NCBI GenBank assembly: GCA_030583905.1
Contig: CP129481.1
Location: 2,260,136 to 2,324,135, forward strand
From: Anaerolineales bacterium
GTDB taxonomy: Bacteria; Chloroflexota; Anaerolineae; Anaerolineales; Villigracilaceae
Direction of reading: 5' to 3'
Length of the DNA stretch: 64,000 nt
The notes under the pieces are model-generated. The model had not been told where the DNA came from, searched no databases, and saw nothing but the letters and a program-made list of their open reading frames with translations. Made by a program: the position numbers and the translations under genes. Positions 42,872-61,345 of this stretch are shown here, piece after piece (position 1 is the stretch's first letter; the number at the start of each line of letters is the position of its first letter).

Positions 42872-44670
42872 TGCTCACCGACCCTAAACTCCGCAGCCAA
42901 GTAGACGCCCTCTGGGATAAGTTCTGGACGGGTGGATTGACGAACCCGCTCGATGCGATCGAGCAGTTTTCGTATTTGTTGTTCCTCAAGCGGTTGGATG
43001 ACCGCGAGAACGCGGCGGAAAGACAGGCAAAACGCAAGGGGACGACGTATCAGCCCAACGTTAAGAAAGAGATGCGTTGGAGCGTCTGGAAGCAGATGAA
43101 GGCGGAAGAGATGCTCAAGCATCTTAAGTCGGTCGTCTTCCCGCAGTTGGCGAGTCTCACTGATGAAGCATCATCATTTGGTATCTACATGCGCGGGGCG
43201 GAGTGCAAGATCAATAAGCCGAGTCTGCTGGTGGAGGCGGTGAACCTGATCGACCAGATGGAGATCAGCCAGCAAAATCAGGATGTGCAGGGCGACCTGT
43301 TCGAGTACCTGCTGAGTCATTTGAGCATCGCCGGGCGCAATGGACAGTTCCGCACGCCGCGTCACATCATCCGCATGATGGTGCAGATGCTCGACCCCAA
43401 GCCGCGTGAACGCATCGGCGACCTGGCGGCGGGCACGGGCGGATTTTTGATCAACGCGCACCAGTATATTTTGGAGAAGGCGACGTCGAAGAACATCCTT
43501 GAATTCGATGCGGACGGCAGCGCACATCATCTGATCGGCGACCTGCTGAAGGATGACGAGCGCAAGTTCATGAATAGCAAAAAATATCTGCGCGGCTTCG
43601 ACAACGACTCAGGCATGACCATGCTGCGCATCGGCTCGATGAACCTGATGTTGCACGGCATTCAGGAGCCGCAGTTCTTTTACATGGACACGCTCTCCAA
43701 GGGCTATGGGGAGGTGGGCGAGTACGATGTCATTTTGATGAACCCGCCCTTCAAAGGCGCGGTGGACAAAGGCGACGTGCATCCCGACCTGCCCAGCGAT
43801 ACGACCAAGAGCGAGTTGCTCTTTTTGCATTTGATTTTGCGCGCGCTCGATATGGGCGGACGCGCGGCGGTGATCGTGCCCGATGGCGTGCTGTTCGGGT
43901 CGAGCCGCGCCCATGTGGAACTGCGCAAACGCCTCATCGAAGAGAATCGGCTGGACGGCGTGGTCTCGATGCCTTCGGGCGTCTTCAAGCCCTACGCGGG
44001 CGTCAGCACGGCGGTGCTGTTCTTCACGCGCGGCGCACAGACGAAAAACATTTGGTTCTATGACATGGCGCACGATGGTTTTTCGCTGGATGATAAGCGG
44101 ACAAAAGTGGATGAGAACGACATCCCCGATATTTTGGATTGTTGGAAGAAGCGGGGGGATAAGAAGTTCATAGAGAGTAGAGAACAGAGAATCGTGGAGT
44201 TGCGGAAGGAGTTGACTCCGTTGAAGGAAAAGAGATTGAAGTTGCAAGCGGAAGTCAACCGCCTCACGTTCGAACTGGCAATTGCCCCTGTTTCTGACGG
44301 CTCTTCTGCCCCGCAACCTGTCACCGCAGAGACGCGGAGCGACGCAGAGAAAACCAAAGAAAAACTCGGCGCTCTCGGCGTCTCCGCGGTCAATGCTCTT
44401 GCTGATGCGCAAGAACAACTCTCTACTCTCCAATCTCTACTCTCTTCTCCGCAAGGGGAACTCGACCGCCTGACCCGCCAATTCTGGGTGACCAAGGAGC
44501 AGGTCAAGGCGAACAAGTACGATCTCTCTGCCAGCCGTTACCGCCAAGTGGAAGCGGACGCGGCGTATCACGAACAGCCGTCTGTGACGCTGGAACGTTT
44601 GGCGCGGTTGGAGAGTGTGATGTTGGATGAAATTGCGGAATTGAAGAAAACGATGAAGGCTGAAGGATGA
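42871..44670 (+). CDS. hsdM: Type I R-M methyltransferase subunit M
   Basis: GQFRTPRHII, DLAAGTGGF (motif I), NPPF (motif IV), VPDGVLF, FKPYAGVST, YDLS..RY. Confidence 0.95.
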   Translation: MLTDPKLRSQVDALWDKFWTGGLTNPLDAIEQFSYLLFLKRLDDRENAAERQAKRKGTTYQPNVKKEMRWSVWKQMKAEEMLKHLKSVVFPQLASLTDEASSFGIYMRGAECKINKPSLLVEAVNLIDQMEISQQNQDVQGDLFEYLLSHLSIAGRNGQFRTPRHIIRMMVQMLDPKPRERIGDLAAGTGGFLINAHQYILEKATSKNILEFDADGSAHHLIGDLLKDDERKFMNSKKYLRGFDNDSGMTMLRIGSMNLMLHGIQEPQFFYMDTLSKGYGEVGEYDVILMNPPFKGAVDKGDVHPDLPSDTTKSELLFLHLILRALDMGGRAAVIVPDGVLFGSSRAHVELRKRLIEENRLDGVVSMPSGVFKPYAGVSTAVLFFTRGAQTKNIWFYDMAHDGFSLDDKRTKVDENDIPDILDCWKKRGDKKFIESREQRIVELRKELTPLKEKRLKLQAEVNRLTFELAIAPVSDGSSAPQPVTAETRSDAEKTKEKLGALGVSAVNALADAQEQLSTLQSLLSSPQGELDRLTRQFWVTKEQVKANKYDLSASRYRQVEADAAYHEQPSVTLERLARLESVMLDEIAELKKTMKAEG

Positions 44671-45857
44671 ATATGAATCAGCCATTCGTTGAGTTGCAAG
44701 AAGTTTGTCGGTTTATCAGCGGCGGAACGCCAAGCACAAAAGTTCCTGAATATTTCATGGGAACGATTCCTTGGATTACTGGCGCAGATATGAACGGCAA
44801 CGTGATAACTAAAGCGCGACAATACATTACCGAAGAAGCAATTCAGAACTCGGCAACAAATATTGTTCCAAAAGGAAATATCTTGCTTGTCACTCGCACT
44901 GGTGTTGGCAAAGTTGCCATTGCTGGTGTTGATATTTGCATAAGCCAAGATTTTACGGGATTGGAACTCGACAAAACAAAAGTAGATGAATGGTTCTTGC
45001 TCTATTATTTGCGCTCTCAAGAAGAAGCCCTTACTTCTCAACAGCGTGGTGCGACCATTCAAGGAATTACAAGAGATGTAGTTGAAACTCTAAAACTTCC
45101 CCTGCCCCCGCTGACCGAGCAAAAGCGGATTGCGTCCCTACTGGCGCGGGCTGACCGTCTCCGCTCCCTGCGGCGGACAGCGCACGATCTCGGCGAGTCC
45201 CTGCTCCAGTCCGTGTTTTTGGAGATGTTTGGGGATGAACAAAAGCAAAACTATGTAACGATTCAAGAGTTGATGGACTCAGAAGTCATTATTGATATGC
45301 AAGACGGAAATCATGGTGGTGACTATCCAAGAACATCAGAATTTGTTTCTGAAGGCATACCATTTCTAACTGCAACTAATGTAATTGGCAACCGAGTTTT
45401 TCTTGACGCTGCTCCTAGATTGAAACCAGAAAGAGCGCATAAATTACGAATTGGTTGGGTAAAGCCAAATGATGTTTTGCTGTCTCATAACGCTACAGTT
45501 GGACGTGTTGCTATCATGCCATACTTTGAAGGCGAAGTTGTACTTGGCACATCATTAACTTATTACAGATTAAATCCTGAAATTCTTTTACCCCGATATT
45601 TTTCTGGTCTTTTGCAGTCAAGGCATTTTCAATCCCAACTTGAAAGTTTTATGGGGCAAACAACGCGCAATCAAGTTCCAATAACTCGCCAAAGGGAATT
45701 GTTTGTTCCTGTTCCGCCACCGCTGAATCTGCAAGAAGAGTTTGCGGGCATGGTGGCGCGGGTCGAGTCGCTGCGGGGGAGGATGTCCGAGGCGGGGAGG
45801 CAGGTCGAGGGGTTGTTTGAGAGTCTGTTGGCGAAGAGCTTCGGAGGAGGAAGGTAA
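44667..45857 (+). CDS. hsdS: Type I R-M specificity subunit S
   Basis: TRD1 (GGTPST..PEYF.G.IPWI), central PLPPLTEQKRI, TRD2, terminal PPPLNLQEEF...LFESLL. Confidence 0.93.
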   Translation: MNMNQPFVELQEVCRFISGGTPSTKVPEYFMGTIPWITGADMNGNVITKARQYITEEAIQNSATNIVPKGNILLVTRTGVGKVAIAGVDICISQDFTGLELDKTKVDEWFLLYYLRSQEEALTSQQRGATIQGITRDVVETLKLPLPPLTEQKRIASLLARADRLRSLRRTAHDLGESLLQSVFLEMFGDEQKQNYVTIQELMDSEVIIDMQDGNHGGDYPRTSEFVSEGIPFLTATNVIGNRVFLDAAPRLKPERAHKLRIGWVKPNDVLLSHNATVGRVAIMPYFEGEVVLGTSLTYYRLNPEILLPRYFSGLLQSRHFQSQLESFMGQTTRNQVPITRQRELFVPVPPPLNLQEEFAGMVARVESLRGRMSEAGRQVEGLFESLLAKSFGGGR

Positions 45858-45860
45858 AGA

Positions 45861-46976
45861 ATGCCATTCGAAACTGCTCGTGTCGCGTTGTTAGGTGAGT
45901 TAGCTGTCGTAATCTCTGGATATTCGCCAAAACCAAGCGAAAGACAAAGGGTTGGAAAATATCTATTACTAGGTGGACGAAATATTGGTGATAGAAGGAT
46001 ATCTTTAACTGTCAAAGATTCTTATATTGAAGATGTAGATAAAGTCAGTTTTCGAAGCGCTATAGCCCGAGCAGGTGATATTATCGTTTCAACACTTTTT
46101 AAAGATCGAAAAATTTATTTTTTCAGAGAAAGTGACCTACCATCTGTAGTCAATAATAGCTGCAAAATAATTAGAGCAACAGCGAACAATGATTATATTC
46201 TGTCATATTTGAGAACTGAGAAAGGACAAAAACAATTTCTTTCGGATGCAGATAATACTGCTAAGGGAGCCTTGATTCCATTCATATCCACAAAAGATAT
46301 TCTAAATATTGAAATACCAATCTTGCCTTTTGAAGAACTACAGCATTTGGGTGATAGCTACATTCAAAATGCTACTTTAGATGATTTGGTTGTAATTCGT
46401 GATGAACTCAAGAGCAAAGAGAAAGAAGTGGCAGTACTTCAAAGTAGACTGACTGATATAACGACTTATTACGAAGACAGATTAAAGAAAGTAGAAACGC
46501 GAATAACAAATTTAGAGTCTATTCCAATAGTTGAGAGACCATTAAAAGTGTTTTTATGCCATTCAAGTTCAGATAAGCCTTATGTTAGGAATCTATATGA
46601 AAATTTAACCGAATTACCAAATGTTGATCCTTGGTTGGATGAAAAAAAACTCTTACCAGGTGATGATTGGCAATTGGAAATCGAAAATGCAGTAAGAACA
46701 TCTGACGTTGTTCTTGTGTGTCTATCCAAAATGTCAACAACCAAAGAGGGATTTGTTCAAAAAGAAATAAAATACGCTTTGGATGTTGCTGAAGAAAAAC
46801 CACCAGGCACCATCTTCATTGTCCCCTTGAAAATAGAAGAATGCTTAGTTCCCAAACGACTTAACCAATTTCAATGGCTTGATTATTTTGCTGATGATGC
46901 AAATGAAAAGCTACTCAAATCTCTTGAAAAACGTGCTCGAACATTGGGAATTGAGTTTAGATATGAAAGCAGATAA
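45861..46976 (+). CDS. HsdS-like TRD fused via a coiled coil to a C-terminal TIR domain
   Basis: N-terminal LGEL..ISG..P...RNI...GDIIVS...DYILSYL...GALIPFIS.KDI.NIEIP..P; C-terminal KVFLCHSSSDK..V..LY..L...DPWLD..KLLPG.DW..EI..AVR.SDVV.VCLS......GFVQKEI. Confidence 0.85.
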   Translation: MPFETARVALLGELAVVISGYSPKPSERQRVGKYLLLGGRNIGDRRISLTVKDSYIEDVDKVSFRSAIARAGDIIVSTLFKDRKIYFFRESDLPSVVNNSCKIIRATANNDYILSYLRTEKGQKQFLSDADNTAKGALIPFISTKDILNIEIPILPFEELQHLGDSYIQNATLDDLVVIRDELKSKEKEVAVLQSRLTDITTYYEDRLKKVETRITNLESIPIVERPLKVFLCHSSSDKPYVRNLYENLTELPNVDPWLDEKKLLPGDDWQLEIENAVRTSDVVLVCLSKMSTTKEGFVQKEIKYALDVAEEKPPGTIFIVPLKIEECLVPKRLNQFQWLDYFADDANEKLLKSLEKRARTLGIEFRYESR

Positions 46977-47152
46977 TCTTTTTGTATTTATTTACCATAC
47001 TCTGCAAGAAGAGTTTGCGGGTGTGGTAGCACGGTCGAGTCGCTACGTGGGCGGATGTCCGAGGGCGGGAAGCAGGTCAAGAGGTTGTTTGAGTCCCTGC
47101 TGGCGGAGTGTTTTGGAATAACATAATTGTCGTAACTATATAGGAGGCTGAA

Positions 47153-48028
47153 ATGAGTATTTTTGATTTCATCGGTAATTTATTTTTTATCCTGTTGGGA
47201 ACAATTTTTCAATTATTCGTGGAAAAATTCAAAGGTAAGCAGAAATTTGTTAGTTGGTTATCCTTTGTACTTATAAGTGTTGGGATGTTTTGGCTCGGAT
47301 TGGAAATAGGCACAAAAGGTTCTTTTGAACTCGTTAGTGATAGTGGACGGAAAAACGTTGAGATTTCTGTACCAATGACAAATTGGGATGTAAACGGTGA
47401 GACCATAGGAAATTCAATTTTAGGCAACAACTCTCATCACGGGGAATTTGAATTATCTTCTGTTCAAGCGGAAAATTCTTACACAAGACCTGAGCAACAG
47501 TTGATATATTCTTGGGATTCCTTAGGCGCCTTTATTGAGCTAAATGGGATGCCCTTGCGTGGAGTTCAGTCTGTTATTTCAATCTTCCCCGTAGAAACAA
47601 AGTACTATGCTGAAAAAGTGTTTTGTCACTATACAGCAAAATATGATGGACGATATTACTCAAGTGTTGAACAGTATATCCCTTTTCGTCAGCCTGTAAT
47701 TATGATCTGGGACTTTACTGGAAGTGTTGACCCATCTGCTTTTGACATAACAGAAGAAGATCGAGCTTATCTAGAAAATTCAATTGACCTCCTTCATCAA
47801 AAAGGCTCAAGTTTTACTTATTATACGAGAAGACTTAGAGAACTTTGGCAATGGCAGGAATTAGTTGCAAACAGTTATGACCCAAACACAGTAGAGAAAC
47901 TTATTGTCACCTGTAATACTTCAGCAACAAAAGAATATCGTGGTGGCAATACAGGTGATCGATTTGTGTTCAGAGGTGAGTTTAATTTCGGTGACGTTAT
48001 AGTTTATCCGTATGAACAAGTAAAATGA
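47153..48028 (+). CDS. Hypothetical protein with two N-terminal TM segments
   Basis: AT-rich 291-aa ORF, RBS aggagg, lies between hsdS-tail copies. Confidence 0.75.
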   Translation: MSIFDFIGNLFFILLGTIFQLFVEKFKGKQKFVSWLSFVLISVGMFWLGLEIGTKGSFELVSDSGRKNVEISVPMTNWDVNGETIGNSILGNNSHHGEFELSSVQAENSYTRPEQQLIYSWDSLGAFIELNGMPLRGVQSVISIFPVETKYYAEKVFCHYTAKYDGRYYSSVEQYIPFRQPVIMIWDFTGSVDPSAFDITEEDRAYLENSIDLLHQKGSSFTYYTRRLRELWQWQELVANSYDPNTVEKLIVTCNTSATKEYRGGNTGDRFVFRGEFNFGDVIVYPYEQVK

Positions 48029-48369
48029 AGTCCTTCTTACAAGAAGAGTTTATGTGTACGGTGGCGCGAGACGAGTCGCTGCGGGGCGGATGTCCGAGGG
48101 CGAGAGGCAGGCGCCGTGTCGAGTTCATCGAGACATCGAGGGGTTGTTTGAGTCCCTGCTGACGCAATCTTTTGACGGTAGACGATGGATGACGGAAAAC
48201 TACTCTCTACTCTCGAATATCTAATCTCTGCTCTTGCGGGCGTGGTGGCGACCGAAGGGAGTGTCGAGTCGCTGCGAGGGAGGATGGGCGAGTCCACGAG
48301 GCAGGTCGAGGGGTTGTTTGAGTCATTGCTGAGTGAGAGTTTTGGAACATAAAAACAAAGGAGAAAATC

Positions 48370-48666
48370 ATGTCTGCTGAACATTTTGAAGCACTGGAAG
48401 CCGTTTATGAGGAAGTCATTGACTCCATGCCAGATACATTTGACGCGCATGAGTTTATTCTGAAACTCGCGCAAAGGCATCAACGCCTTTATGTTCAAGC
48501 TCTCATTGAATATGCCGAAAGTGAAAGACCATTTCAGATTGCTCATGGGCAAATCGCACAACGTTTACGCAATTTTCCAAATCTCGTTGCTTATGATGGA
48601 GAACACAATAGTAAGGATATTTTTCTCCAAGTTAACTCTGCATCGCTATGGCGCAAGGTAAGATAG
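48370..48666 (+). CDS. Hypothetical 98-aa protein
   Basis: RBS aaggag; lies between hsdS-tail copies. Confidence 0.75.
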   Translation: MSAEHFEALEAVYEEVIDSMPDTFDAHEFILKLAQRHQRLYVQALIEYAESERPFQIAHGQIAQRLRNFPNLVAYDGEHNSKDIFLQVNSASLWRKVR

Positions 48667-48851
48667 CGATTATGCAGGATGAGTTTGCGGGCGTGGTGGC
48701 GACCGAAGGGAGTGTCGAGTCCCTGCGGGGGAGGAATAGCATCCCCTTTGGGGACTCGGCGTTTGAGCCTCGCGAGGCGAGGAGGCAGGTGGAGAATCTT
48801 TTCGAGTCATTACTTGCTCAATCATTTGCAGCAGGATAAGGAGTTGAGAAC

Positions 48852-49163
48852 ATGCAAGTCTACATAAATTATCCCAATCCACACTTTACAATTCACAAGA
48901 ATTCTTCCTGTCCGCAAATCCATATACACCAAAAGAGCGGGCAACGGATCGTAAAAGTCAATCCGGTAACTTTGAAGAATGTTCTCAGTCAATTTATCAA
49001 TGATGCCTACGATTTCAAATCCGAAGCGCAATGGAATGATTTGTGGTTGGATGTGTCGTTGTCCACGTATGAGCAGGAAATTGGATTCGTTCATGTAATT
49101 CAAGCATTAATTGGTCAGCGATACAAACCGCTTGGAAATGCGCCGATAAGTGACCATTGCTAA
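48852..49163 (+). CDS. Hypothetical 103-aa protein
   Basis: RBS aaggag; AT-rich; lies between hsdS-tail copies; Cys/His residues near both ends. Confidence 0.72.
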   Translation: MQVYINYPNPHFTIHKNSSCPQIHIHQKSGQRIVKVNPVTLKNVLSQFINDAYDFKSEAQWNDLWLDVSLSTYEQEIGFVHVIQALIGQRYKPLGNAPISDHC

Positions 49164-49250
49164 TGCAAGTCGTGTCGACTGCCCGATAGGGCGTGTCGAG
49201 ACATCGAGGGGCTGTTTGAGAGTCTGCTGGCGGAGGCGTTTGAGCAATAA

Positions 49251-51045: not shown

Positions 51046-51378
51046 GAGGTGGGCTGTTGCGCCGAATTAGTGAGGATACAATCCGCAAGCGGATGATCGA
51101 CCCGCAGTTGGAAAGGACGGGTTGGTATTTGCGCGACTTCTCAAATGGGGAAATTATTGGGTGGTAATTTTATGATTACATTGTTCAGTACGATAACCCT
51201 TGTTAGTTTCGCTTCCTGTGCGCCGTGCCAAGTATGTTCTTGCAGAAGCGCCATCTCGAGACCACCGACTTATACGAACCGCTCTTGGACATGTTTGGCA
51301 CGGATGCAGCGGCGCGGTGTTTTACGGAGAAGGGGTGTAAGAAATGGTGGAGTTTGCTAACCGATTGGCGATTCAATA
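51046..51378 (+). pseudogene. hsdR: Internally deleted hsdR remnant (5' about 90 bp joined to 3' about 200 bp)
   Basis: 51046-51130 matches 37144-37225 (GCGCCGAATTAGTGAGGATACA...ATGATCGACCCGCAGTTGGAAAGG); 51207-51370 matches 39743-39905 with frameshifts. Confidence 0.88.
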
Positions 51379-51429
51379 ATTTTGAGCCATTACACCGATT
51401 CGATTGCCACGAGATGAAAAGGAGACAAA

Positions 51430-53043
51430 ATGAATGGCAAAATTAGCTTCATTCCAAATGCAGATTTGGGCAGATATCTTCAATCCCTTGACTCTGTGCG
51501 ATTCCTTGAATCAAATGAGATTGCTTGTAATGTCCAAGCAAAATTAGAAATTTTTACGTCTTTGATGTTAGGTAGAACTATCCCTGTCGGTGAGCACCAG
51601 TTCATTGATTCGTACGGGCTTCTGTCGAATGCGTATCACATGATTAAAGCCTTAGATAAGTTGCCAAAAACAGATCGCTCCCAAATTGAACATATATTTC
51701 CTTTTCAACTTTATTTCCGAGGCGAATATAAGACCATAGATGGTTTGATTGCCGCAAAACTGGGCGACCCTAATTACAAACTTTCTTTGTGGCGTTATTT
51801 AAGCAAACCTGATGACCAAAAAATGCTAGATAATCGCCAAAAGATAAAGGCAAAAGTGGAAGATGGTACTTTTAAGTACGAGGATGACGATCTCGTGCCA
51901 AACAAAGATTATGATGCAGCAAAAATGCTTCACAAAGTTCGAAATCACTTCTTTCACGGCGAAAGAGAGCAAATCTACACACTCTACGGTTCTAAGACAA
52001 TTGGGATTGCACCTTACATTGGGCTTCTTGAAGCAGGAATTTCGAGGATTAGTAATCTGACTAGAAAGGATTTGAACAGTCAGATTAAACATCAAGCAAA
52101 GCTAATGGATAAGGGAATAATTGCCACAGAGATACTCGATCCTAAGTTAAAAGAAATAGCCGTTGAACTAATCATGATTCTGAGGCAACTAAAGAAACTT
52201 GGATTGATGACGGGAAATCGCTCTAATATCCGAATCGGTAATGCGAGAATTAGGTCACGGGGGAAAGAAAAAATTCAAAAGTTCAGAGAGATTGTAAACA
52301 ATGATCTAATGTATGACGCCATACTTGAAATTTTTGATTTGCTTTACAATAGTTCAATTGCTAAATCGTGTTTTGCACATAGCGAAAGTGTTTCATCAGC
52401 TCGGAGTATTACTGATAATCATTATGTCCAAGCGGCAATAGCACTTTCTACAATGGCAAAAAACGAGATTACCGATCAGGCAGACTTGAAAGGGAATTAC
52501 TTTAACCCGCCCTGGATACAAGATTTTACGTTCAACCTAAACGTGCCTTCCGAGGCAAAACTTATGCTTGATTCTATGCCATGGGAGCGTGTTTGGGAGG
52601 CGTTTTTGGATACAAAATGGCGAGATACTGTTTCTAATTTAAACGGTATTCTCTTGAAATGGGACAAATTTATCAATGACCCAACTACATCTGAACAAGA
52701 ATATATGGATGTGACCTACGAGTTGGATTATGCTTACGATGCACATATAGACAATATAAGCAGGATTCTTAAAGAGTCAGGGTGGAATTTTGTTAAAAAC
52801 CAGAAAACCAACCAAACCATAATTAAGTTTTTACCTTGGGTAGGTGGGTTAGCTACTAAGGCAGTAGCAAAGATTGCTCTTGATCGCGTTGGCATAGATC
52901 CATTTTGGGAGGAAACAATACCAGATTCAATTGGTACCGCAACGGGAATTGGCATAAATAAAACTATCGAACCTGTTGGCAAATGGATAACTAAAGGTTA
53001 CATTAGAAAGACATTTGCCCGCTTGGTTTTGCCAGAAAAATAA
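51430..53043 (+). CDS. Hypothetical 537-aa protein
   Basis: Long AT-rich ORF with RBS aaggag; no family recognised. Confidence 0.85.
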   Translation: MNGKISFIPNADLGRYLQSLDSVRFLESNEIACNVQAKLEIFTSLMLGRTIPVGEHQFIDSYGLLSNAYHMIKALDKLPKTDRSQIEHIFPFQLYFRGEYKTIDGLIAAKLGDPNYKLSLWRYLSKPDDQKMLDNRQKIKAKVEDGTFKYEDDDLVPNKDYDAAKMLHKVRNHFFHGEREQIYTLYGSKTIGIAPYIGLLEAGISRISNLTRKDLNSQIKHQAKLMDKGIIATEILDPKLKEIAVELIMILRQLKKLGLMTGNRSNIRIGNARIRSRGKEKIQKFREIVNNDLMYDAILEIFDLLYNSSIAKSCFAHSESVSSARSITDNHYVQAAIALSTMAKNEITDQADLKGNYFNPPWIQDFTFNLNVPSEAKLMLDSMPWERVWEAFLDTKWRDTVSNLNGILLKWDKFINDPTTSEQEYMDVTYELDYAYDAHIDNISRILKESGWNFVKNQKTNQTIIKFLPWVGGLATKAVAKIALDRVGIDPFWEETIPDSIGTATGIGINKTIEPVGKWITKGYIRKTFARLVLPEK

Positions 53044-53079
53044 GAATTTTTCAATACAAATACGGAAGAAGGATATGTC

Positions 53080-53757
53080 ATGAATTACTATGAGCTGCTT
53101 AGCAAATTCCCAAATCTTATCGGCGATAATGATGCCTTAATAAAGATCGTGCAAGAACCTGATGCTATCAAGGACTGGCAAGAACAGCGCCAAAAAGAAC
53201 TTGCCAGTAAAAACCTTCCGCAAAATTGGGCTGATATTGGTGTCGTATTTCATGATCCGTATTTTTTCGTTGTCCGTGACTTGGTTCAATTTCCTAATGG
53301 ACGTTTGAATGGTTATTGTCGTGTTCTAAGTGAAGCTAATCTGAGCGGAGGGCATGGGGCGGTTGTTTTGCCTGAATACGAAGGTAAAGTAATGTTGTTA
53401 CACCAGTATCGCCATCCAACGCGTAAATGGCACTATGAAGTTCCGCGTGGATATGGCGAATTGAACACTCCTGCTGAAGAAAATGCCCGAAAGGAAGTTG
53501 AAGAAGAAACAGGTGGAACAATTGAAAAGCTTGTGAATTTAGGGGAGTTCTATAATAATACTGGTTTTGAGGGTGGAGCGGTTTCGTTGTTTTATGCCAA
53601 GTTGTCATCCATAGGCCAGCCAAACGAAGATGAAGGCATTGAGTCCTTCGTCTGGCTCACTGTCAAAGAACTCGAAGAATGGATAGCCAACGAGAAGATC
53701 ACCGATGGCTTTACCATTGCCGCGTACACCAAAGCCAAACTCAAAGGATTGATCTAG
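53080..53757 (+). CDS. NUDIX hydrolase (ADP-ribose pyrophosphatase-like) with N-terminal extension
   Basis: HQYRHP..KW.YEVPRG, NUDIX box GYGE...AEENARKEVEEETG, I.DGFTIAA. Confidence 0.9.
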   Translation: MNYYELLSKFPNLIGDNDALIKIVQEPDAIKDWQEQRQKELASKNLPQNWADIGVVFHDPYFFVVRDLVQFPNGRLNGYCRVLSEANLSGGHGAVVLPEYEGKVMLLHQYRHPTRKWHYEVPRGYGELNTPAEENARKEVEEETGGTIEKLVNLGEFYNNTGFEGGAVSLFYAKLSSIGQPNEDEGIESFVWLTVKELEEWIANEKITDGFTIAAYTKAKLKGLI

Positions 53758-53909
53758 GAGGGATTCTTGCTATGAGCGGAATAGATAAGTTCTATGGTTA
53801 ATTAAGGAAGAAATCTATTCGGTTTCGTTTTCCCAATGGCAATAAGACTCCGAATCCGCTGCCCCAGAACTACCGCCATGTGAAAGCCGTCCGCGGACTG
53901 CTGAATTTT

Positions 53910-54354
53910 ATGCCCAGGGGACACCACATTGCAAGTATTGGCTTCAAAATCAGTGAGGAGGCCTTTGTGGTTCTGTCCAACCTTGAAAATGACCTGAAGT
54001 GGCGAAACGAATGGGTTGATACCCGGAAAACTTCAGAGGGTCCGATTGGACCTAGCACCTGTTTCGGTCTGGTTGCCAAAGCGTTTGGACGGCAGGCTCG
54101 AGACGGTCTACGAGACGATCCAATGCGAACCAAATCGGATTGTGGCGTGGAAAGCCATGTCGGGACCGCTTCCGCTGACATTCCGGAGGACCGTCGAGCG
54201 CGTCGAAGGCGGTACCCGCCTGACCATCAGATACGAAGTGGAACCGCGTAGCTTCCTAAAGCTGCTTATGCCGCTCATCGCTGGCTCGGTCACGCGACAA
54301 CATACAGGTGACCTGCGTAAGGTGAAGGAACTGCTGGAAACCCGCGCGTTGTGA
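53910..54354 (+). pseudogene. Frameshifted SRPBCC (polyketide cyclase-like) gene
   Basis: N-half EEAF..LSNLEND.KWR.EW..T.KTSEGPIG in one frame; C-half RLETVYE...EPNR.VAWK..SGPLP in the next; shift near 54090. Confidence 0.7.
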
Positions 54355-54455
54355 GCATGTTCTGAACATGTCAACAAACACCCGATCACGGGGTTATCTT
54401 GTCATAGCAGATATTTCCGACTACACATCGCTCGTTGCCAAGACAGATCTCAAAA

Positions 54456-54570
54456 ATGAGCGAAACTCAGATAACCCGAAGAAAACCCGAACAGGCCGCG
54501 AAACTCTTGCGCAAAGCCGATGAAGAAATGACAAGGGGCAAATCGGTGGAAGATTCCTACCCGGGAAAAG
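54456..54570 (+). mobile_element. Possible IS3-family OrfA N-terminal fragment
   Basis: RRKPEQ.AKLLRKAD....GKSVE resembles IS3 OrfA starts; short and degenerate. Confidence 0.4.
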
Positions 54571-54654
54571 CCACAACCTGCCTTGCAACCGGCAAAACCA
54601 AAGTCCCGCCTCAAAGCGGGACTTTGGTTTCTTGATAATGGAACTATCTTTTCC

Positions 54655-55851
54655 TCACTCGTATCGAAACCTCATCACGCCCACTGCAAAAAAGACAGCC
54701 GCAAACCCGAGCAGGACTCCCGCCTCGGGCAGAATTTCCATCAAGCCTCCGCCGCGCAAGCCCAGGTCCAACATGCCTTCCATCGCCCAGGTGGTGGGGA
54801 GGATTCTTACAGTATTCTGCACCGCAGGTGGGAACAGTTCCAGTGGATACATACATCCGCCCATCATGGCGAAGAGCATGCCGAACATGACGCTCAATCC
54901 GACGGCTTGCCCTGTGGTCTTGATGAACGTTCCCAATGCAGTGCCGAACGCTGCCGCCGCAAGCGCGGATGCGAATAACAGAACGAACAGGGCAAAGGGT
55001 TCACGTCCCCAATTGAGTTTCATCGCAAAGATGCCGAATCCAACCAGTAGAAACATTTGAATCAACGCCATCCCCACCTGACCTGAGATCGTGCCAAATA
55101 AAAATGTCGATTTACGCGCTGGGGTTGTCAGCATACGGCGCAACGTCCCTCCCTGACGTTCGGACGCGAACAATGCCGAGATCCCGAACAATGGGATAAA
55201 CACCCACGTGATCAATTGCCCGGCAGACGTATTGGTGCGCGGGTCATAATCGATTCCATCTGGCGTTGTGCTTTCGATCACAGTCACACGTTCTGGCGCA
55301 TCCTTCTGAATGGACTGCGCCATTTCCAAAGAGTTCTCGAAGTATGTTTGCTTCTCTGCGCCTGAGGCGAAAGGCTGTTTTGCCTCACGCACATTGACTG
55401 CATTCTGCGCCGCGGAGATGGAACTGCTCACCCTTCGGATCGCTGTCAGCACAGCCCGCTCGGCAATGGTTGCATTCAGGTTATTTGGCTGTTGAAATAA
55501 TTCGACCTCTGCTGAGCCGTTTTGCAGTAATTCGATGTCGATACCAGCAGGGATAATAAACACAACCGAGGCGCGGCGGTTTTCGAATTGGCTTTCAGCC
55601 TCTTCACGCGCAACAATTTCTGTGCGGACGGCGGACGAGTTTTCGAGATCAGAAATAATCTGCTGTGAAATGGATGTTTGTGCCTCATCCACGACCAGCA
55701 AGCGGATGCGGTGATCGTCATCCCCTGACGGGACCCCACCTGCAATCAGGAAAGTAAAGGTGATGGGTAAAATAAGGAAGAATAGCCACTCTGATTTACT
55801 TGCAAATCGAATGACGGCGTCCTTCCATGCGATGGCAAATATTTTTTTCAT
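54655..55851 (-). CDS. ABC-2 type exporter permease
   Basis: N-terminal TM, large loop, ERQGGTLRRML.TP, GGCMYP. Confidence 0.92.
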   Translation of the reverse strand: MKKIFAIAWKDAVIRFASKSEWLFFLILPITFTFLIAGGVPSGDDDHRIRLLVVDEAQTSISQQIISDLENSSAVRTEIVAREEAESQFENRRASVVFIIPAGIDIELLQNGSAEVELFQQPNNLNATIAERAVLTAIRRVSSSISAAQNAVNVREAKQPFASGAEKQTYFENSLEMAQSIQKDAPERVTVIESTTPDGIDYDPRTNTSAGQLITWVFIPLFGISALFASERQGGTLRRMLTTPARKSTFLFGTISGQVGMALIQMFLLVGFGIFAMKLNWGREPFALFVLLFASALAAAAFGTALGTFIKTTGQAVGLSVMFGMLFAMMGGCMYPLELFPPAVQNTVRILPTTWAMEGMLDLGLRGGGLMEILPEAGVLLGFAAVFFAVGVMRFRYE

Positions 55852-57107
55852 TTCTGTACCAACCCATTCCGATTGAATAACACAACTGCAACTCCAAACA
55901 AGACAGTTCCCATAACGAGCAGGGCGGTGACGGGTTCTGTTAGATTTTTCAAAGTGCCACCGAGGGCTAACGTTGTAAAACCGTCCAAGCCCCAGGCATT
56001 GGGCATGATCTTGCTGATGGTTTGAATGAACGGCGGGAAATTCTCAAGATCGATGAAACTACCGCCCAAAACGCTGAAGATCAACATGACAACGGTACCT
56101 GTATTGGCAACCTGTGCAGGTGTATGGGCAAAGGCCGTGATCAGCATTCCCCAGCCTGTCGCACCGAAGACCGCCGCAAGGATCAGGACAATCACTCCGA
56201 GCGCATCCCCCCATCTGACTTGAAAGAACAGGGTCGATATGAGGATCAATATGCCGACTTGGGCAACGCCCATGAAGAAGATACCCAGTACTTTGCCGCC
56301 CAAAACCTGTGTGGTCTGTGTGGGGGCGATCATCAGCCGCGGCAATGTGCCTCCCGCGCGTTCAGCCAGAATCGAGCGTCCGCCATAGGAGACGGTGTAC
56401 ATCAGGAACATCAATGCCATGCCAGGCGCAAAGTAGGAGAGCAGGTCGAGCTCGACAGCATCAGAGCCTTCTATATTTGTTTTAAGTGTGATGGCGGACG
56501 ATTCGGCTTCAGCTGCATTTTGAAATAACTTGCTCGCTTCTTTCTCAGCGTTGAGCGGATTCAACAACCCATCATTCATCAACCCGACAATGGATGTCAT
56601 GCCGCTCGTTCGTCCCTCCTCGACACGTGAGATAAATTCATCCACAACGGCTTTGACGATGCCTGCGCTGGTGGGACTGGATGGATTCGTATACATTTCA
56701 ATTTTTACAGGTTCGGGTTGGACGTAACCTTGAGAAAACCGTGTGTCTTCTGCCGGGATGATCGAACGGGTGAATCCTTCAGGGATGATGACAACGGCAG
56801 CAGCTTTATCCTCGTCCATTAAACGGCGGGCAGCTTCGGGGTCGGAGGAAGCGCTGGGCTCCATCAACCCCGATAGTTCTTCCGAGTTGAATAGATCTTC
56901 GAGCGCATTCCCCAAATCCCCTTGATCCAAATTGACGATGACGACAGGAATGTCAGATAGTCCTGTGGAGCCGCCACTGAAACGCCCCGTGACAAATCCC
57001 ATGCCGATGGTGAGGAGAAAGGGTGCGAGGAGCATGAACGTAAGCGCGACGCGGTCGCGGAACATGAGCTTGAGGTCTTTGATACCGATGAGTAAAAGCT
57101 TTTTCAT
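55848..57107 (-). CDS. ABC-2 type exporter permease
   Basis: ER.GGTLPRL.IAP, LGGSF, P.AWGLDG. Confidence 0.92.
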   Translation of the reverse strand: MKKLLLIGIKDLKLMFRDRVALTFMLLAPFLLTIGMGFVTGRFSGGSTGLSDIPVVIVNLDQGDLGNALEDLFNSEELSGLMEPSASSDPEAARRLMDEDKAAAVVIIPEGFTRSIIPAEDTRFSQGYVQPEPVKIEMYTNPSSPTSAGIVKAVVDEFISRVEEGRTSGMTSIVGLMNDGLLNPLNAEKEASKLFQNAAEAESSAITLKTNIEGSDAVELDLLSYFAPGMALMFLMYTVSYGGRSILAERAGGTLPRLMIAPTQTTQVLGGKVLGIFFMGVAQVGILILISTLFFQVRWGDALGVIVLILAAVFGATGWGMLITAFAHTPAQVANTGTVVMLIFSVLGGSFIDLENFPPFIQTISKIMPNAWGLDGFTTLALGGTLKNLTEPVTALLVMGTVLFGVAVVLFNRNGLVQK

Positions 57108-57203
57108 AATTTAACTTTCATATGTCATTGCGAGCACATGTTGTGAAGCAATCGTATATTCAATGAGGAGATTGCTTTCCGATGGCTCGCAACGACATGG
57201 ATG

Positions 57204-58148
57204 TTAGTCACGCAACGCTCTACCAGTAAGATGCAAAAAAACCGCTTCGAGATTCGGCTCGCGGATATCAATGGAACGGATCTTGATGCCGCGCTCATTG
57301 GCTTTGCTGACAACCGATGCGAGAACATCTTCTGCTGCTGGTGTAATGATCGAGACCTCGTGATCGACTGCAATGGCTTCGAGCACGCCGTCCAAGCTTT
57401 TGAGCGATTCAGCCAACGCTTCGGTGTCTTCATTTTCGTTGATGTGCAAAATGAGCGTATCGGTTTGCCCGACCTGTTTGGTCAGTTCATCCTGTGTGCC
57501 GAGCGCGATCAGTTCACCATGATCGATGATGCCAACGCGGTCCGAGAGTTCCTCGGCTTCTTCCATATAGTGCGTCGTATAAAGGACGGTCATGCCCTGC
57601 TTGTTCAGGTCTTTGACCGTATCCAGGATCGCGCGGCGTGATTGCGGATCGATGCCGACGGTGGGTTCGTCCATGAATAGCAGACGCGGCTTGTGGAGCA
57701 GCCCCACGCCAATGTTGACGCGTCGCTTCATGCCTCCCGAATAGGTTTTGACCTGGTTTTTGGCTTTATCCACCAAACCGATCTGCTCCAACACTTCATC
57801 CACGCGGCTGTTGAGGGACTTGCCGCTCAACCCGTACATCTGCCCCCAGAAGATGAGATTTTCGCGCGCGGTCAAGTCTTCGTAGAGGGCGAGTTCCTGC
57901 GGCACAACGCCAATGACCTGTTTGACAGCCATCGGCTCCTTCGAGATGGAATGACCGCCAATGGACGCATCGCCTGCGATGGGTGTGTATAGGGTCGACA
58001 ACATCGAGATGGTGGTGGTCTTGCCTGCTCCGTTCGGACCGAGCAGGCTGAAGATCTCGCCCTCTTTGATATTAAAGGTGATGCCTTTGACGGCGGCAAA
58101 ATCACCATAATTCTTTTGGAGGTCTTTTACCTCGAGAATGGATTCCAT
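57204..58148 (-). CDS. ABC exporter ATP-binding subunit (DrrA/LnrL-like)
   Basis: GPNGAGKTT, YSGGMKRR, DEPTVG, TTHYMEEAE; RBS caggag before ATG 58148. Confidence 0.95.
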   Translation of the reverse strand: MESILEVKDLQKNYGDFAAVKGITFNIKEGEIFSLLGPNGAGKTTTISMLSTLYTPIAGDASIGGHSISKEPMAVKQVIGVVPQELALYEDLTARENLIFWGQMYGLSGKSLNSRVDEVLEQIGLVDKAKNQVKTYSGGMKRRVNIGVGLLHKPRLLFMDEPTVGIDPQSRRAILDTVKDLNKQGMTVLYTTHYMEEAEELSDRVGIIDHGELIALGTQDELTKQVGQTDTLILHINENEDTEALAESLKSLDGVLEAIAVDHEVSIITPAAEDVLASVVSKANERGIKIRSIDIREPNLEAVFLHLTGRALRD

Positions 58149-58172
58149 AACTTGCTCCTGCAACATCTGTGC

Positions 58173-58538
58173 TTACGATCTTCGCAAGCGACCCAGGATC
58201 AAACCAAGGCCAAGGACAATGAGGATGATGGGCCAGTACGTCCTCAGGTTGAGATCGATCGCATTGCCAAACAGCAGGCTCACGAACATCAGAAGCATGA
58301 ACAGACCGACCAATGCGGGTACCATCGTACCCATTTCAAATAAATCATTTGTAGAACGGTAGCGGTTGTATGCGCTGATAAGTGCGCCGAAGGCGGGGAA
58401 AAGGATCAAGAGTGCCCACCAATTCAATACGAAAGGCAGGACGTTAAGTTGATTGAGCAGGATCATTGCCCCCGCAACGATTAATACCAGTCCAATCCAA
58501 AAACTTGTGTTGCCGCTGATAGATTTGTTTTCTTCCAT
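58173..58538 (-). CDS. LiaF/LiaI-like small membrane protein
   Basis: G..LI..G...LL..L, WWAL.LL, YWP.ILIVLG pattern. Confidence 0.7.
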   Translation of the reverse strand: MEENKSISGNTSFWIGLVLIVAGAMILLNQLNVLPFVLNWWALLILFPAFGALISAYNRYRSTNDLFEMGTMVPALVGLFMLLMFVSLLFGNAIDLNLRTYWPIILIVLGLGLILGRLRRS

Positions 58539-58550
58539 TTTGTCTCTCCT

Positions 58551-58633
58551 TTTTGATGAAGGAATTGTAGAATACCTTTATCGGGATGTCATCAAGAGAC
58601 AGATGGATTTCTCAATCAATCAAAAGTTGGATT
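58551..58633 (-). promoter_or_regulatory. Duplicated upstream regulatory region, copy 1
   Basis: Highly similar over about 83 bp to 61346-61428; both lie just upstream of minus-strand start codons. Confidence 0.75.
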
Positions 58634-58736
58634 GAGAAGGTCATAATATTGTATGCAGTTCTCGTTCAAGTTGAAATTTACGCATGAAAACATATTAAGT
58701 TTCCACCTCCCTGTAAAGAGTGTGGATTTCACAAAA

Positions 58737-59366
58737 CTATTTAATTTGAATGACCTTCTTTTTTACTGCCTCGGTTACCGCTGATGTGCGATCAGTTACT
58801 CCCAATTTGGAAAAGATATGGACGAAATGAGATTTAACAGTTGCCTCGGTAATGAACAATATCTTTGCTATTACCTTATTAGAATTGCCTTGCGATGCAA
58901 GCTCCAACACTTCAATTTCACGGCTGCTCAATATATTTTTAGAAGAATTTGTCAAACGCCGCGTTACTCTTTCTGCCACACGCGGCGCTAGCGACATCTC
59001 GCCCCTTGCTGCATTGCGAATCGCTTGAAATAGTTGTTCAGGGGGAGTGTCTTTTAGTAAATAACCAATTGCTCCAGCTTCGAGTGCCGGCAATATATCT
59101 GCATCTGTTTCATAAGTAGTAAGTACTAAAATATTTGCCTTTGGCAACTTGTCTCGAATAAGTTTTATCGCCCCCAGTCCGTCTAAATTGGGCATTTGCA
59201 GGTCCATGAGAATTAAATCTGGGACGAGAGAGATTGCCAGCTTGGCAGCCTCTTCGCCGTTTTCGGCATCAGCGACTATATCAAAATCCGGTTGTGATGA
59301 TAATAAAGCTCGCAACCCACTGCGGACAACAGGGTGGTCATCAGTAATTATTATGTTAATCGTCAT
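58737..59366 (-). CDS. NarL/LuxR family response regulator
   Basis: IITDDHPVVR.G, LMDLQMP..DG, GYLLK, LS.RE.EVL...GNSNK.IA..LFITEATVKSH. Confidence 0.95.
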   Translation of the reverse strand: MTINIIITDDHPVVRSGLRALLSSQPDFDIVADAENGEEAAKLAISLVPDLILMDLQMPNLDGLGAIKLIRDKLPKANILVLTTYETDADILPALEAGAIGYLLKDTPPEQLFQAIRNAARGEMSLAPRVAERVTRRLTNSSKNILSSREIEVLELASQGNSNKVIAKILFITEATVKSHFVHIFSKLGVTDRTSAVTEAVKKKVIQIK

Positions 59367-60549
59367 TTTCTTCTGAAACAGGAATAGAAACAGCAATTGC
59401 TGTTCCTGTTCCTCGCTCACTTTCTATGTTTAGTGTTCCATTCAATTCTTCTGCTCTGTCTCGCATTGTTCTCATTCCGAAACCATTCTTGATTTTTGAA
59501 GGGTCAAACCCCAGTCCATCATCGGCAATATCCATCACAAAAATATCTTCCATAAACGAAAAGGTGATATTGACGTTTTTAGCTTGAGCATGTTTATTTA
59601 TATTCTGCATGGCTTCCTGTGAAATGCGGAGTAGTGCCGTTTCGGTAGATGATGTGAGAGAGCGCGGATTACCCGTCACTTTCATCTTTACCTGTATATT
59701 ATTTTCTGCAGACCAACGTGCCGCTAATTCTTCAACAGCCTCGATAAGAGAAGCGCTTTCAAATTGTTCCGGTTGCATGTCCCAAACGATCCTGCGAATC
59801 TCGTCAAGCCCTTCCCGTGCAGCATCTTCGGCTTGTTGAACTTCTGATTGGACTGCTCCCGGGTTGCTGTGCTTTGCCGCAGAGAGATGCATGATAATGG
59901 ACGTGAAATGTTGGGCAAGCGTGTCGTGAATGTCACGGGCGATGCGTTGTCGTTCAGTCAGCCGACCCGCTTCCCGTTCAATCCTCATCAAATCTGCCCG
60001 GGACCGGGTTAATTCATCAATAAGACGTTGGCGTTTTGTACTCTGTATTAAGATGGATGAAATAAAAGCACCAATGATCGTCGAGATGATCAGCATACCT
60101 AGGATGATCAATAGGATTGCGAACCAATGCTCAGTTGGATATAACATGATATATAGAACATAAAGACCTAAAGTCTGAAAAACAGTTATTCCAATTGACC
60201 ACCGAATGGGGAATCGGCTAAAAATTAATGGAAAGAATATCCCTATCAACAAAAGCGAATCGGCGGCGAGTGAGAGCAAACCACCCCAGATTACCCATCC
60301 TGGTACCAGATAAAGTGCGCCGCGTTTAGGATTATCCCAAATGCGCAAATTTGAAATGGTTATAAATGGGATGTACCATACACCCAATGCCGCAGAAAGA
60401 ATAAGAAAGAACGAAAAGTTTATGATTTTAGGTTCACGGTTGTATACAAATATGATGTTCAAGATAAGAAAACTGTAGGCTGAAAAGTGCCATACCCAAT
60501 CCCATTGTTCCCATACCTCGGGGGGTTTGCTTTTTTGTATTTTCGTCAT
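59356..60549 (-). CDS. Membrane sensor histidine kinase (HisKA_3, DesK-like)
   Basis: N-terminal TMs, ERQRIARDIHDTLAQ, QEAMQNI.KHA, DDGLGFD, GFGM..M. Confidence 0.93.
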   Translation of the reverse strand: MTKIQKSKPPEVWEQWDWVWHFSAYSFLILNIIFVYNREPKIINFSFFLILSAALGVWYIPFITISNLRIWDNPKRGALYLVPGWVIWGGLLSLAADSLLLIGIFFPLIFSRFPIRWSIGITVFQTLGLYVLYIMLYPTEHWFAILLIILGMLIISTIIGAFISSILIQSTKRQRLIDELTRSRADLMRIEREAGRLTERQRIARDIHDTLAQHFTSIIMHLSAAKHSNPGAVQSEVQQAEDAAREGLDEIRRIVWDMQPEQFESASLIEAVEELAARWSAENNIQVKMKVTGNPRSLTSSTETALLRISQEAMQNINKHAQAKNVNITFSFMEDIFVMDIADDGLGFDPSKIKNGFGMRTMRDRAEELNGTLNIESERGTGTAIAVSIPVSEENDD

Positions 60550-60626
60550 GATGGCATTATACCTTGCGATATCTGGCTGTGTTTTTTGTGCCCAGAATAT
60601 CGCAAGGTAATGGTTTGAACTTACTT

Positions 60627-61328: not shown

Positions 61329-61345
61329 TTCTACCTCCATGTAGA

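Follow-up and report, generated by a model that had tools for sequence, protein, structure and literature searches.

In a 64,000-nucleotide stretch of contig CP129481.1 from an Anaerolineales bacterium (the window), two genes, here called A and B, lie one behind the other in the same orientation and 36 bp apart (Table 1). Gene A encodes a large protein of a previously unnamed superfamily and gene B a NUDIX hydrolase. We present this A-NUDIX pair as a strong candidate for a new kind of anti-phage system. It appears to be a modular system of the abortive-infection type on an apparently undescribed protein family, in which A might act as a sensor with an attached effector element and B as its brake. 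The listing of open reading frames (ORFs) agrees exactly with a sequence-only reading of this DNA that had singled out the two co-oriented genes and their spacing. Their reported AT-richness was borne out as well, as the GC content is 39.7% for the pair and 53.2% for the window. Neither ORF is a product of chance: 18 close and 134 distant homologues were found for A, and at least 301 for B. The source organism is present in sludge and bioreactor metagenomes, and relatives carry a Chloroflexota/Anaerolineales annotation.

The pair was also correctly placed behind an hsdR scar. When the region upstream of A was compared by tblastn with the HsdR of the window and of a related locus, L014, an hsdR remnant was found. 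Its first part corresponds to HsdR residues 1-33 with 83% identity to the intact HsdR of the window, and its second part to the final ~80 residues, broken by in-frame stop codons. At the nucleotide level the remnant is 82-87% identical to the hsdR ends of L014. Since only the 5' end and a stop-bearing 3' end are left, we regard the remnant as an internally deleted hsdR.

Pairing of A-like genes with a NUDIX gene

An A-like gene was followed by a same-strand NUDIX gene of the B subfamily in all 15 independent loci that could be read, and HMMs (hidden Markov models) of both families confirmed this. The two genes therefore co-occur elsewhere, as expected of the two-gene system that had been proposed from the letters. 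They were directly adjacent in 12 of the 15 loci, and their spacing there lay between an overlap of 4 bp and a gap of 47 bp. The pairing extends down to an A identity of 22% and over Chloroflexota, Patescibacteria and Streptomyces. Close-family pairs were read in the window and with P0008 (L001-3), P0005 (its contig), P0017 (L004/5), P0012 (L006), P0013 (L008), P0016 (L009/10) and P0014 (L011/12), and a decayed pair, with both genes frameshifted, with P0009 (L007). The distant stand-alone pairs are those of P0023 (L014/15), P0153 (L016) and P0026 (L017-19), the last with a degenerate NUDIX. The set is completed by a pair headed by two transmembrane (TM) helices (P0038, L020), a TIR-headed pair (P0054, L022) and a group-1 pair on the Streptomyces plasmid pADI95-16a (L023), which has the order CHAT-A-CHAT-NUDIX. 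B was missing only beside an A-like gene fragment, L013, and an A-like sequence at the end of a contig, L021. An extra paralogous NUDIX gene, NUDIX2, is found 5' of A in three systems, and a gene for a HIT hydrolase in one of them.

Some of these loci show peculiarities of their own. In L020 (4195-5199) a single gene for an NAD-dependent epimerase/dehydratase separates the A-like gene from B, and in L022 (2578-3864) the B-type NUDIX after the TIR-headed A is fused to a full RmlC (dTDP-4-dehydrorhamnose 3,5-epimerase cupin, E = 9e-61), followed by a multi-TM protein. In L007 (6889-10265) NUDIX2 is intact, A is split into two frames (7854-9050 and 9080-9478) and so is B (9568-9990 and 9951-10265); a MazE/PIN pair and a DDE transposase adjoin this copy. 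L014 (3525-9248) has an apparently orphan EcoEI-type hsdR, NUDIX2, an A-like gene and a NUDIX gene packed in one direction with gaps of 4-22 bp, an order that poses the question whether an HsdR-type motor is part of some versions of the system. L023 is the plasmid NZ_CP033582.1 of Streptomyces sp. ADI95-16, where CHAT, the A-like WP_123082970.1, a second CHAT and the B-like NUDIX WP_254211850.1 occupy positions 54167-62435. On an Embleya plasmid (L024) a TPR-CHAT gene lies divergently beside a full-length B-like NUDIX gene, with no A-like gene detectable there. P0192 is a B-type NUDIX 66% identical to B; its possible adjacency to the group-1 A-like P0027 is hinted at by a longest contig of exactly 5502 bp listed for both.

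Proteins A and B

Protein A gave no family match in Pfam (2025), NCBIfam (June 2026) or PADLOC (2023), even at E ≤ 10 with core-only sequences, and phmmer and profile searches of PDB sequences gave nothing. The earlier description of a large protein without a recognisable motif thus holds, and A matched no housekeeping or other family. The close family comprises 18 proteins among 5.8 billion searched. When 185,579 species genomes were scanned, the sole return was an N-terminal fragment in a metagenome-assembled genome of Chloroflexia. A profile search of 1.84 billion representatives yielded 134 relatives, 71 of them with E ≤ 1e-10. The part common to this superfamily spans A residues ~12-450, and D21, R24, G48, D60-S61, S119, R136, R264, Y306-N307 and H439 are invariant or nearly so over 105 distant full-length members. 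As defined here, the superfamily is recognised by a helical core of ~440 amino acids (aa), these residues other than S119 and a following B-type NUDIX gene, and A shows all three. The alignment suggests that the invariant polar residues form a ligand pocket or an active site.

Structure prediction and fold search, which the sequence-only reading had proposed, were applied to both proteins. The AlphaFold 2 (AF2) model of A, built with 17 homologues, is mostly helical, with a pLDDT (predicted local distance difference test) of 74 and a pTM (predicted template modelling score) of 0.77. The N-terminal domain reached a pLDDT of 85-94 over most of its length, and the C-terminal tail was low. Foldseek returned only noise for this model, the best E-values being 0.75 in the PDB and 0.2 in BFVD. 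For B, the closest folds were NDP-sugar and ADP-ribose hydrolases.

The tail of A, residues 450-537, is absent from most of the superfamily. It had been described as a Gly/Ala-rich amphipathic stretch. The composition was confirmed, with a Gly+Ala fraction of 0.24 in residues 468-512 against 0.11 elsewhere in A, whereas the amphipathicity is weak. In the TM prediction no segment of the window's tail attained TM hydrophobicity, and its hydrophobic moment was unremarkable. In P0010-P0018, which make up the family's more distant half, the equivalent segment is clearly hydrophobic, with Kyte-Doolittle values of 1.5-2.1. As the window's own tail is not TM-like, it is from these relatives that the label membrane-active is taken. 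A link of the A superfamily to bSEFIR was considered and rejected: the match of P0056 to the bSEFIR model extended past the TIR region, and it vanished with the core alone.

Protein B was recognised by the Pfam NUDIX model (PF00293, E = 2.7e-10, 40.8 bits against a cut-off of 21.1). It stayed below the curated NCBIfam cut-offs for TIGR00052 (YffH/AdpP; 32.3 bits against 79.55) and NudE (NF008736; 32.1 against 169) and failed the NUDIX-containing PADLOC candidate PDC-S07 (E = 0.0069, 14 bits, no stretch passing alone). The AF2 model of B, built with database homologues, had a pLDDT of 92.9. Foldseek gave 470 matches in the PDB at E ≤ 0.001, and the best 50 of the 470 were all Nudix hydrolases; the best folds had E ~2e-12 and target-normalised template modelling scores of 0.76-0.82, with ~175 of the 225 residues aligned. 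By sequence and by fold, the nearest solved proteins are the Bdellovibrio NDP-sugar hydrolase (one of its entries, 5c7t, with ADP-ribose bound), enzymes of Bacillus methanolicus, Ndx2 of T. thermophilus, the GDP-mannose hydrolase YffH and the ADP-ribose pyrophosphatases of M. tuberculosis and E. coli. Since the solved ADP-ribose pyrophosphatases align to B only from residue 47-68 on, B has an N-terminal extension of ~50-60 aa, close to the ~60 aa noted before.

The NUDIX box had been called intact. This is true of the metal-binding E139, E142 and E143, which are invariant in the B subfamily, but not of the whole canonical GX5EX7REUXEEXGU, because the first Glu is replaced by Thr and the Arg by Lys, two positions that vary in the family. 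B has N-T-G-F where the B. methanolicus enzymes (8zr8, 'methanol dehydrogenase activator'; 8wv3/9jax, 'ADP-ribose pyrophosphatase') read S-P-G-F, and 'NTG' is invariant in the subfamily save in the diverged NUDIX2 and L017 rows. Dunn and colleagues are said to have recognised in 1999 a Pro ~15-16 residues past the Nudix box as the signature of ADP-ribose pyrophosphatases. In B this Pro is a Thr, and the signature is lacking. By its alignments B forms its own NUDIX subfamily with at least 301 members, and the JGI labels homologues of B as ADP-ribose pyrophosphatase. From the sequence and the model B is very probably an active pyrophosphatase for nucleoside diphosphates linked to a moiety X (NDP-X), of the sugar-nucleotide/ADP-ribose class.

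In the sludge metatranscriptome run X21 a 162-nt contig matched positions 53686-53791, at the 3' end of B, with 95-99% identity and diverged beyond 53791. These 106 nt are too little for a claim that B is transcribed. A close relative of B is probably transcribed in sludge in another downstream context.

Table 1. Features of the window discussed in the text (window coordinates)
Feature	Position	Strand	Description and basis
Gene A	51430-53043	+	537 aa, ATG start (ORF listing); previously unnamed superfamily; proposed sensor/scaffold core with C-terminal effector-like hairpin
Ribosome-binding site of A	51420-51424	+	AGGAG, Shine-Dalgarno-like, 5 nt before the ATG of A; direct sequence reading
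N-terminal conserved domain of A	51463-51864	+	aa ~12-145; D21, R24, G48, D60-S61, S119, R136 superfamily-invariant; alignments
Second half of A core	52216-52749	+	aa ~263-440; conserved N263-R264-S265, D303/Y306-N307, H439; alignments
Clade-specific C-terminal tail of A	52777-53040	+	aa 450-537; beta-hairpin, Gly/Ala-rich hairpin (aa 468-512), W519-x-T-x-G-x-I-R526; candidate membrane-active effector element
Gene B	53080-53757	+	225 aa, ATG start (ORF listing); NUDIX hydrolase of a distinct subfamily accompanying A-like genes; Pfam, AF2, Foldseek, subfamily HMM
Ribosome-binding site of B	53070-53073	+	AGGA, Shine-Dalgarno-like, 6 nt before the ATG of B; direct sequence reading
Helical N-terminal extension of B	53080-53229	+	aa 1-~50, family-specific, kept in all partners; helices 3-9, 27-43, 48-51 (AF2)
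NUDIX box of B	53449-53517	+	aa 124-146; G-x5-T-x7-K-E-V-E-E-E-T-G-G; alignment to solved ADP-ribose pyrophosphatases and family alignments
hsdR remnant	51057-51376	+	first ~33 and last ~80 codons, stops; tblastn against window HsdR and L014 HsdR
hsdR remnant, first part	51057-51155		HsdR residues 1-33
hsdR remnant, second part	51126-51376		final ~80 HsdR residues
Intact hsdR	37142-39910
STAND-type NTPase gene	39917-42871		984 aa; NB-ARC (E = 6e-6), ~10 TPR
hsdM	42871-44670
Repeats of hsdS 3' end	45730-49245		last ~120 nt of hsdS, at least 5 copies
HsdS-TRD::TIR fusion gene	45861-46976		371 aa; TIR_2 (E = 6e-25)
Two-TM ORF	47153-48028		291 aa; no family match
SRPBCC/Polyketide_cyc2-like gene	53880-54354		3' of B; apparently split over two frames; C-terminal ORF 54016-54354

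Exchangeable parts, genomic surroundings and a proposed mechanism

Among 20 long relatives of A that were scanned, eight bear an N-terminal TIR/SEFIR domain, two a PNP_UDP_1 domain of the purine-nucleosidase type, two an NNH1 (NACHT N-terminal helical domain 1) and one a calcineurin-like Metallophos domain; four further relatives have a head of two strongly hydrophobic N-terminal helices (two-TM). The heads match CBASS 'Effector' HMMs. In P0025, P0049 and P0052 the cores are 53-61% identical and carry three different heads. The NUDIX partner stays the same throughout. Behind the TIR-headed P0054 a B-type NUDIX starts 15 bp downstream and shares 45% identity with B along its entire length, including the extension, and the partner of the two-TM-headed P0038 is 65% identical to B. 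Since B is constant while the killing module varies, we assign the A core and B to sensing and regulation, and the heads, the tail and the CHAT proteins to execution. The pair had been read as an effector plus a nucleotide-processing module. The constant NUDIX partner agrees with the second half of this description, but A looks like a constant sensor/scaffold core with a variable effector element and not simply like the effector.

The roles could also be distributed the other way round, with A as the sensor only and B as the effector that, once activated by A, drains an essential NDP-X pool (NAD+, ADP-ribose or an NDP-sugar). B could then deny the phage the sugar-nucleotides for DNA glycosylation against neighbouring restriction endonucleases, or it could destroy ADP-ribose and so make the loss of NAD+ irreversible. 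Such a role would suit the stand-alone A of the window, which has no recognised enzymatic effector, as well as the invariant catalytic glutamates and the hydrolase fold of B, the RmlC fusion in L022 and the epimerase neighbour in L020, and the hsdR adjacency that recurs in the window, L014/15, L004/5 and the P0005 contig. However, B is kept unchanged beside relatives that already bear TIR, two-TM or CHAT effectors, and the constant part of a modular system is normally not its effector. In addition, where relatives bear effector heads, the members of the A family have a hydrophobic hairpin of their own, and besides the ~50-aa extension B has no recognisable regulatory domain. We therefore regard an effector role of B as rather unlikely and keep to B as the regulatory partner of a sensing A.

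A and B have diverged at very different rates. Comparison of the window with L014, L016 and L020 gives identities of 64-65% for B and of only 22-25% for A, and inside the close family of A the B partners share only 49-53%. The DNA identity between the window and L014 is 87% at the 5' end of hsdR, 82% at its 3' end and 73% in B. The A gene has been swapped out between conserved hsdR and B flanks, and by these alignments the hsdR remnant of the window marks the ancestral order hsdR-(NUDIX2)-A-NUDIX. A fast-diverging, exchangeable A beside a conserved B argues for diversifying pressure on A and for a link between the two through a diffusible substrate instead of a tightly co-evolved interface. 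A type II toxin-antitoxin system, with an antitoxin that binds its toxin and co-evolves with it, would fit the operon layout, but the phylogenies are decoupled. Simple binding of A by B as an antitoxin is disfavoured by this decoupling (B 65%, A 22%) and by the retention of the catalytic residues of B.

An enzymatic toxin-antitoxin pair would be less affected by this argument. Here A would use or make an NDP-X, or nucleotidylate or ADP-ribosylate a target, and B would detoxify by hydrolysis, as DarG reverses DarT. The tight two-gene operon, the joint decay of A and B in L007, the invariant polar residues of A, which would fit an active site, and the additional hydrolases (NUDIX2, HIT) are all compatible with this, and decoupled phylogenies suit an antitoxin that acts on a small molecule. 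A toxic A would, however, make the frequent added heads (TIR, PNP, two-TM, CHAT) redundant, and A is unlike any known transferase or toxin fold. We judge this explanation improbable, and the sensor with a hydrolytic brake remains preferred.

The neighbours of the pair are overwhelmingly defence genes in the loci read. In the window the pair forms the end of a ~17-kb island with the order hsdR, STAND (NB-ARC+TPR) NTPase, hsdM, hsdS, HsdS-TRD::TIR fusion, small cassettes, a GC-rich LytR gene, and then the hsdR scar, A and B. The neighbours at other loci include AbiEii with a PrimPol-helicase, a type I restriction endonuclease with a Ppl/LmuB-like ATPase, and a DISARM-like group of a type IIG restriction-modification/DrmMI-like methylase, a DrmD-like SNF2-PLD helicase and a PD-T4-6-like kinase. 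Further neighbours are a ThsB-like TIR-WD40 protein, MazE/PIN, HEPN_AbiU2, integrases and transposases. A ThsB-like TIR gene adjoins the pair in L011/12 and lies at most ~5 kb away in the window and in the P0005 contig. The link to TIR-derived ADP-ribose products that had been suggested is strengthened by the TIR fusions of A relatives, one of which is followed by a B-subfamily NUDIX, and by the fold of B; it may hold, and we keep it as a conjecture.

The distribution of the pair is patchy and rare, and its hosts are mainly activated-sludge Chloroflexota, Patescibacteria and Streptomyces plasmids. A metagenome scan with the fused clade gave two loci only. The pair could be a niche metabolic or housekeeping pair without an immune role, for instance for the salvage of sugar-nucleotides or ADP-ribose with an accessory protein, that happens to lie in variable regions. 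The JGI label of the B homologues would agree with this, and so would the RmlC and epimerase genes associated with B, the solitary B-like genes on plasmids and the LytR and ABC-transporter genes that flank the pair in the window. A salvage pathway would not explain the extreme patchiness given above (one fragment among the species genomes, 18 close homologues among all proteins searched), the atypical GC content, the defence-gene neighbours in most loci, the fusions of relatives to TIR, PNP, Metallophos, NNH1 and two-TM heads, or the replacement of A as a cassette. We consider it quite improbable in comparison with a role in immunity.

No relative of A or B was found in 50,697 phage genomes or in IMG/VR. 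The plasmid search for A gave nothing save one group-1 relative on a Streptomyces plasmid, and relatives of B were found on Streptomyces, Embleya and Vibrio plasmids. The matches that a TIR-headed A query obtained in the phage, plasmid and IMG/VR searches were discarded, as they covered the TIR head only and not the A core. The pair might be imagined as phage or prophage counter-defence, in which the NUDIX would break down signals of host immunity, for instance ADP-ribose signals produced by TIR proteins, to the benefit of the mobile element. Phage NUDIX, Macro and NADAR proteins have been proposed to degrade ADP-ribose-derived signals (PMC9503650), and the pair is AT-rich and horizontally acquired. 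Against this stand the empty phage searches and the lack of phage structural genes nearby, and the fusion of the A core to suicide effectors (TIR, two-TM, CHAT) is a signature of host immunity. Counter-defence is thus hardly credible, and we return to the pair as a host module.

Taken together, our preferred reading, to which we give a probability of about 0.45, is that the A core senses a ligand, probably an NDP-X, and activates an effector, and that B hydrolyses the NDP-X as a brake or reset in an anti-phage module. A and B would form a horizontally mobile two-gene module. In the helical core of A, D21, R24, D60-S61, R136, R264, Y306-N307 and H439 might line a pocket that binds a nucleotide-derived ligand; that they form an active site is less likely. 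This core would in turn drive an attached cell-killing element. In the window's clade this would be the Gly/Ala-rich C-terminal hairpin, which probably perturbs membranes, and in relatives the N-terminal TIR, purine-nucleosidase, metallophosphoesterase, NNH1 or two-TM head, or the flanking CHAT proteases. B most likely hydrolyses the NDP-X to which A responds and would set an activation threshold or reset the system. A would fire only if the NDP-X surges or infection overwhelms B, for example with ADP-ribose-type products of NAD+ cleavage. Because of the TIR links and the fold of B, such products are the obvious ligand candidates; sugar-nucleotides stay in play with the RmlC fusion and the epimerase neighbour.

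A number of points weigh against this reading. The pair owes its assignment to defence to guilt by association. In the contexts read, no conserved signal synthase accompanies it, and the predicted fold of A is without an analogue in the PDB and BFVD. The conserved polar residues of A could equally form an active site. The tail of A is weakly hydrophobic and weakly amphipathic in the subclade of the window (Kyte-Doolittle maximum 1.16, helical hydrophobic moment at most 0.44), so that its role as a membrane effector is weak there. ADP-ribose is not established as the substrate of B, because the box has lost its canonical first Glu and its Arg, and the signature Pro is replaced. The RmlC fusion in L022 and the epimerase in L020, two independent links, point to NDP-sugars instead. 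As to the pairing, group 1, with 45 stand-alone representatives, was sampled by a single readable context, L023, and B-like NUDIX genes without an A-like neighbour occur on Streptomyces plasmids.

A related, more tentative possibility is a second-layer module that needs no synthase. The A core would be a new nucleotide-receptor fold, the NDP-X would come from the infection itself or from other NADase defences, the NUDIX would set the threshold, and the swappable effectors would carry out abortive infection. Such a sensor would couple the different defences of one island. Candidates for the NDP-X are ADP-ribose, a TIR product or a phage sugar-nucleotide.

If the pair defends, it would be a new defence family on a domain absent from Pfam, NCBIfam, PADLOC and the PDB, and the first system with a NUDIX hydrolase as a constant partner. 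In that case it would also bear on how nucleotide-based immunity is silenced and reset, and it might show whether the ADP-ribose-type products of one defence system can be sensed by another. The natural swapping of heads offers experimental handles, as the same core is available with a TIR, a nucleosidase, a two-TM head or a hairpin.

The island of the window has further features apart from the pair. The last ~120 nt of hsdS (...QEEFAG.VARVESLRGR...GLFESLLA.SF..) are repeated at least five times with 62-96% identity, ending near 45845, 47117, 48175, 48346 and 49243. Every copy forms the end of a small cassette: the HsdS-TRD::TIR gene, the 291-aa two-TM ORF, and ORFs of 98 aa and 103 aa. The array looks like cassettes recombined into the 3' end of hsdS. 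The 371-aa fusion protein consists of one HsdS target-recognition domain (TRD) and a TIR of the same subtype as the heads on A relatives such as P0056. The 291-aa ORF after it begins with two hydrophobic helices, and the two may be a TIR plus TM-effector pair. The STAND-type NTPase gene is inserted between hsdR and hsdM in a type I restriction-modification operon that is otherwise intact. Downstream of B, the SRPBCC-like gene appears to be split over two frames, with its N-terminal part in the frame of 53880 and its C-terminal ORF covering profile positions 55-142 only; either this is a pseudogene with a frameshift or the assembly is in error here. Relative to the window, one metagenome contig has 1-nt deletions at 54159 and 54387.

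Comparison with known systems

The literature search found no description of the A-NUDIX pair, nor of a Thoeris system with a NUDIX core gene. NARP3, a two-gene phage NAD+ module, was considered as a match and is unrelated to the pair.

With cyclic-oligonucleotide-based antiphage signalling systems (CBASS), Pycsar and type III CRISPR the pair shares interchangeable heads on one constant domain, namely TIR, two-TM, purine nucleosidase and phosphoesterase/endonuclease, and the agreement extends to the match of the A-relative heads with the 'Effector' HMMs of CBASS. It also has a dedicated nucleotide hydrolase beside the sensor, like the ring nucleases that accompany Csm6/Csx1. Unlike CBASS and Pycsar, however, no CD-NTase, nucleotidyltransferase or cyclase gene flanked A or B in the contexts read. 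Neither the sequence nor the predicted fold of the A core is related to SAVED, STING, CARF or SLOG, and the partner hydrolase is a NUDIX that is obligatory rather than accessory. Plant NUDT7, a negative regulator of TIR/EDS1 immunity, offers a conceptual parallel only, as a NUDIX that restrains ADP-ribose-linked immunity in a eukaryotic and non-homologous context.

In Thoeris, the TIR protein ThsB reportedly makes ADP-ribose-derived signals to which ThsA or a caspase-like effector responds. Similarities are the TIR domains fused to A relatives, the ThsB-like TIR genes near the pair and the place of B in the ADP-ribose/NDP-sugar hydrolase fold class. The caspase-like CHAT proteases that flank the A-like gene in L023 recall TIR-activated caspase-like immunity. 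In contrast to Thoeris, A has no SIR2, SLOG or Macro domain, none of the ThsA and ThsB models of PADLOC, NCBIfam and Pfam is matched by A or B, and the TIR is optional, as a fusion or a neighbour, and not constant. We know of no Thoeris type with a NUDIX as a core gene.

The modular conflict systems of multicellular bacteria described earlier (PMC7159879) have, like the pair and its relatives, TIR, PNPase, caspase/CHAT-like and NACHT N-terminal helical effectors, hosts among the Chloroflexota and Actinomycetota and the same logic of constant and variable parts. Kaur, Burroughs, Iyer and Aravind (2020) list Nudix among the effector domains acting on ADP-ribose or NAD+ that are fused to a vWA component (PMC7159879). 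Nudix is mentioned once there and the A-plus-NUDIX pair is not described. Those systems are centred on NTPases (STAND, MoxR-vWA, GTPase), whereas A has no P-loop and matches none of these domains.

B itself shares the fold, the ExxEE metal ligands and the E-x-P-x-G lead-in with the ADP-ribose and NDP-sugar pyrophosphatases NudF/ADPRase, YffH/NudK, NudE, the Bdellovibrio NDPSase and Ndx2. It differs from them in its helical N-terminus of ~50 aa, in the altered box, in the Thr for Pro and in scores under the TIGR00052 and NudE cut-offs, and in being the obligate partner of A in the genomes.

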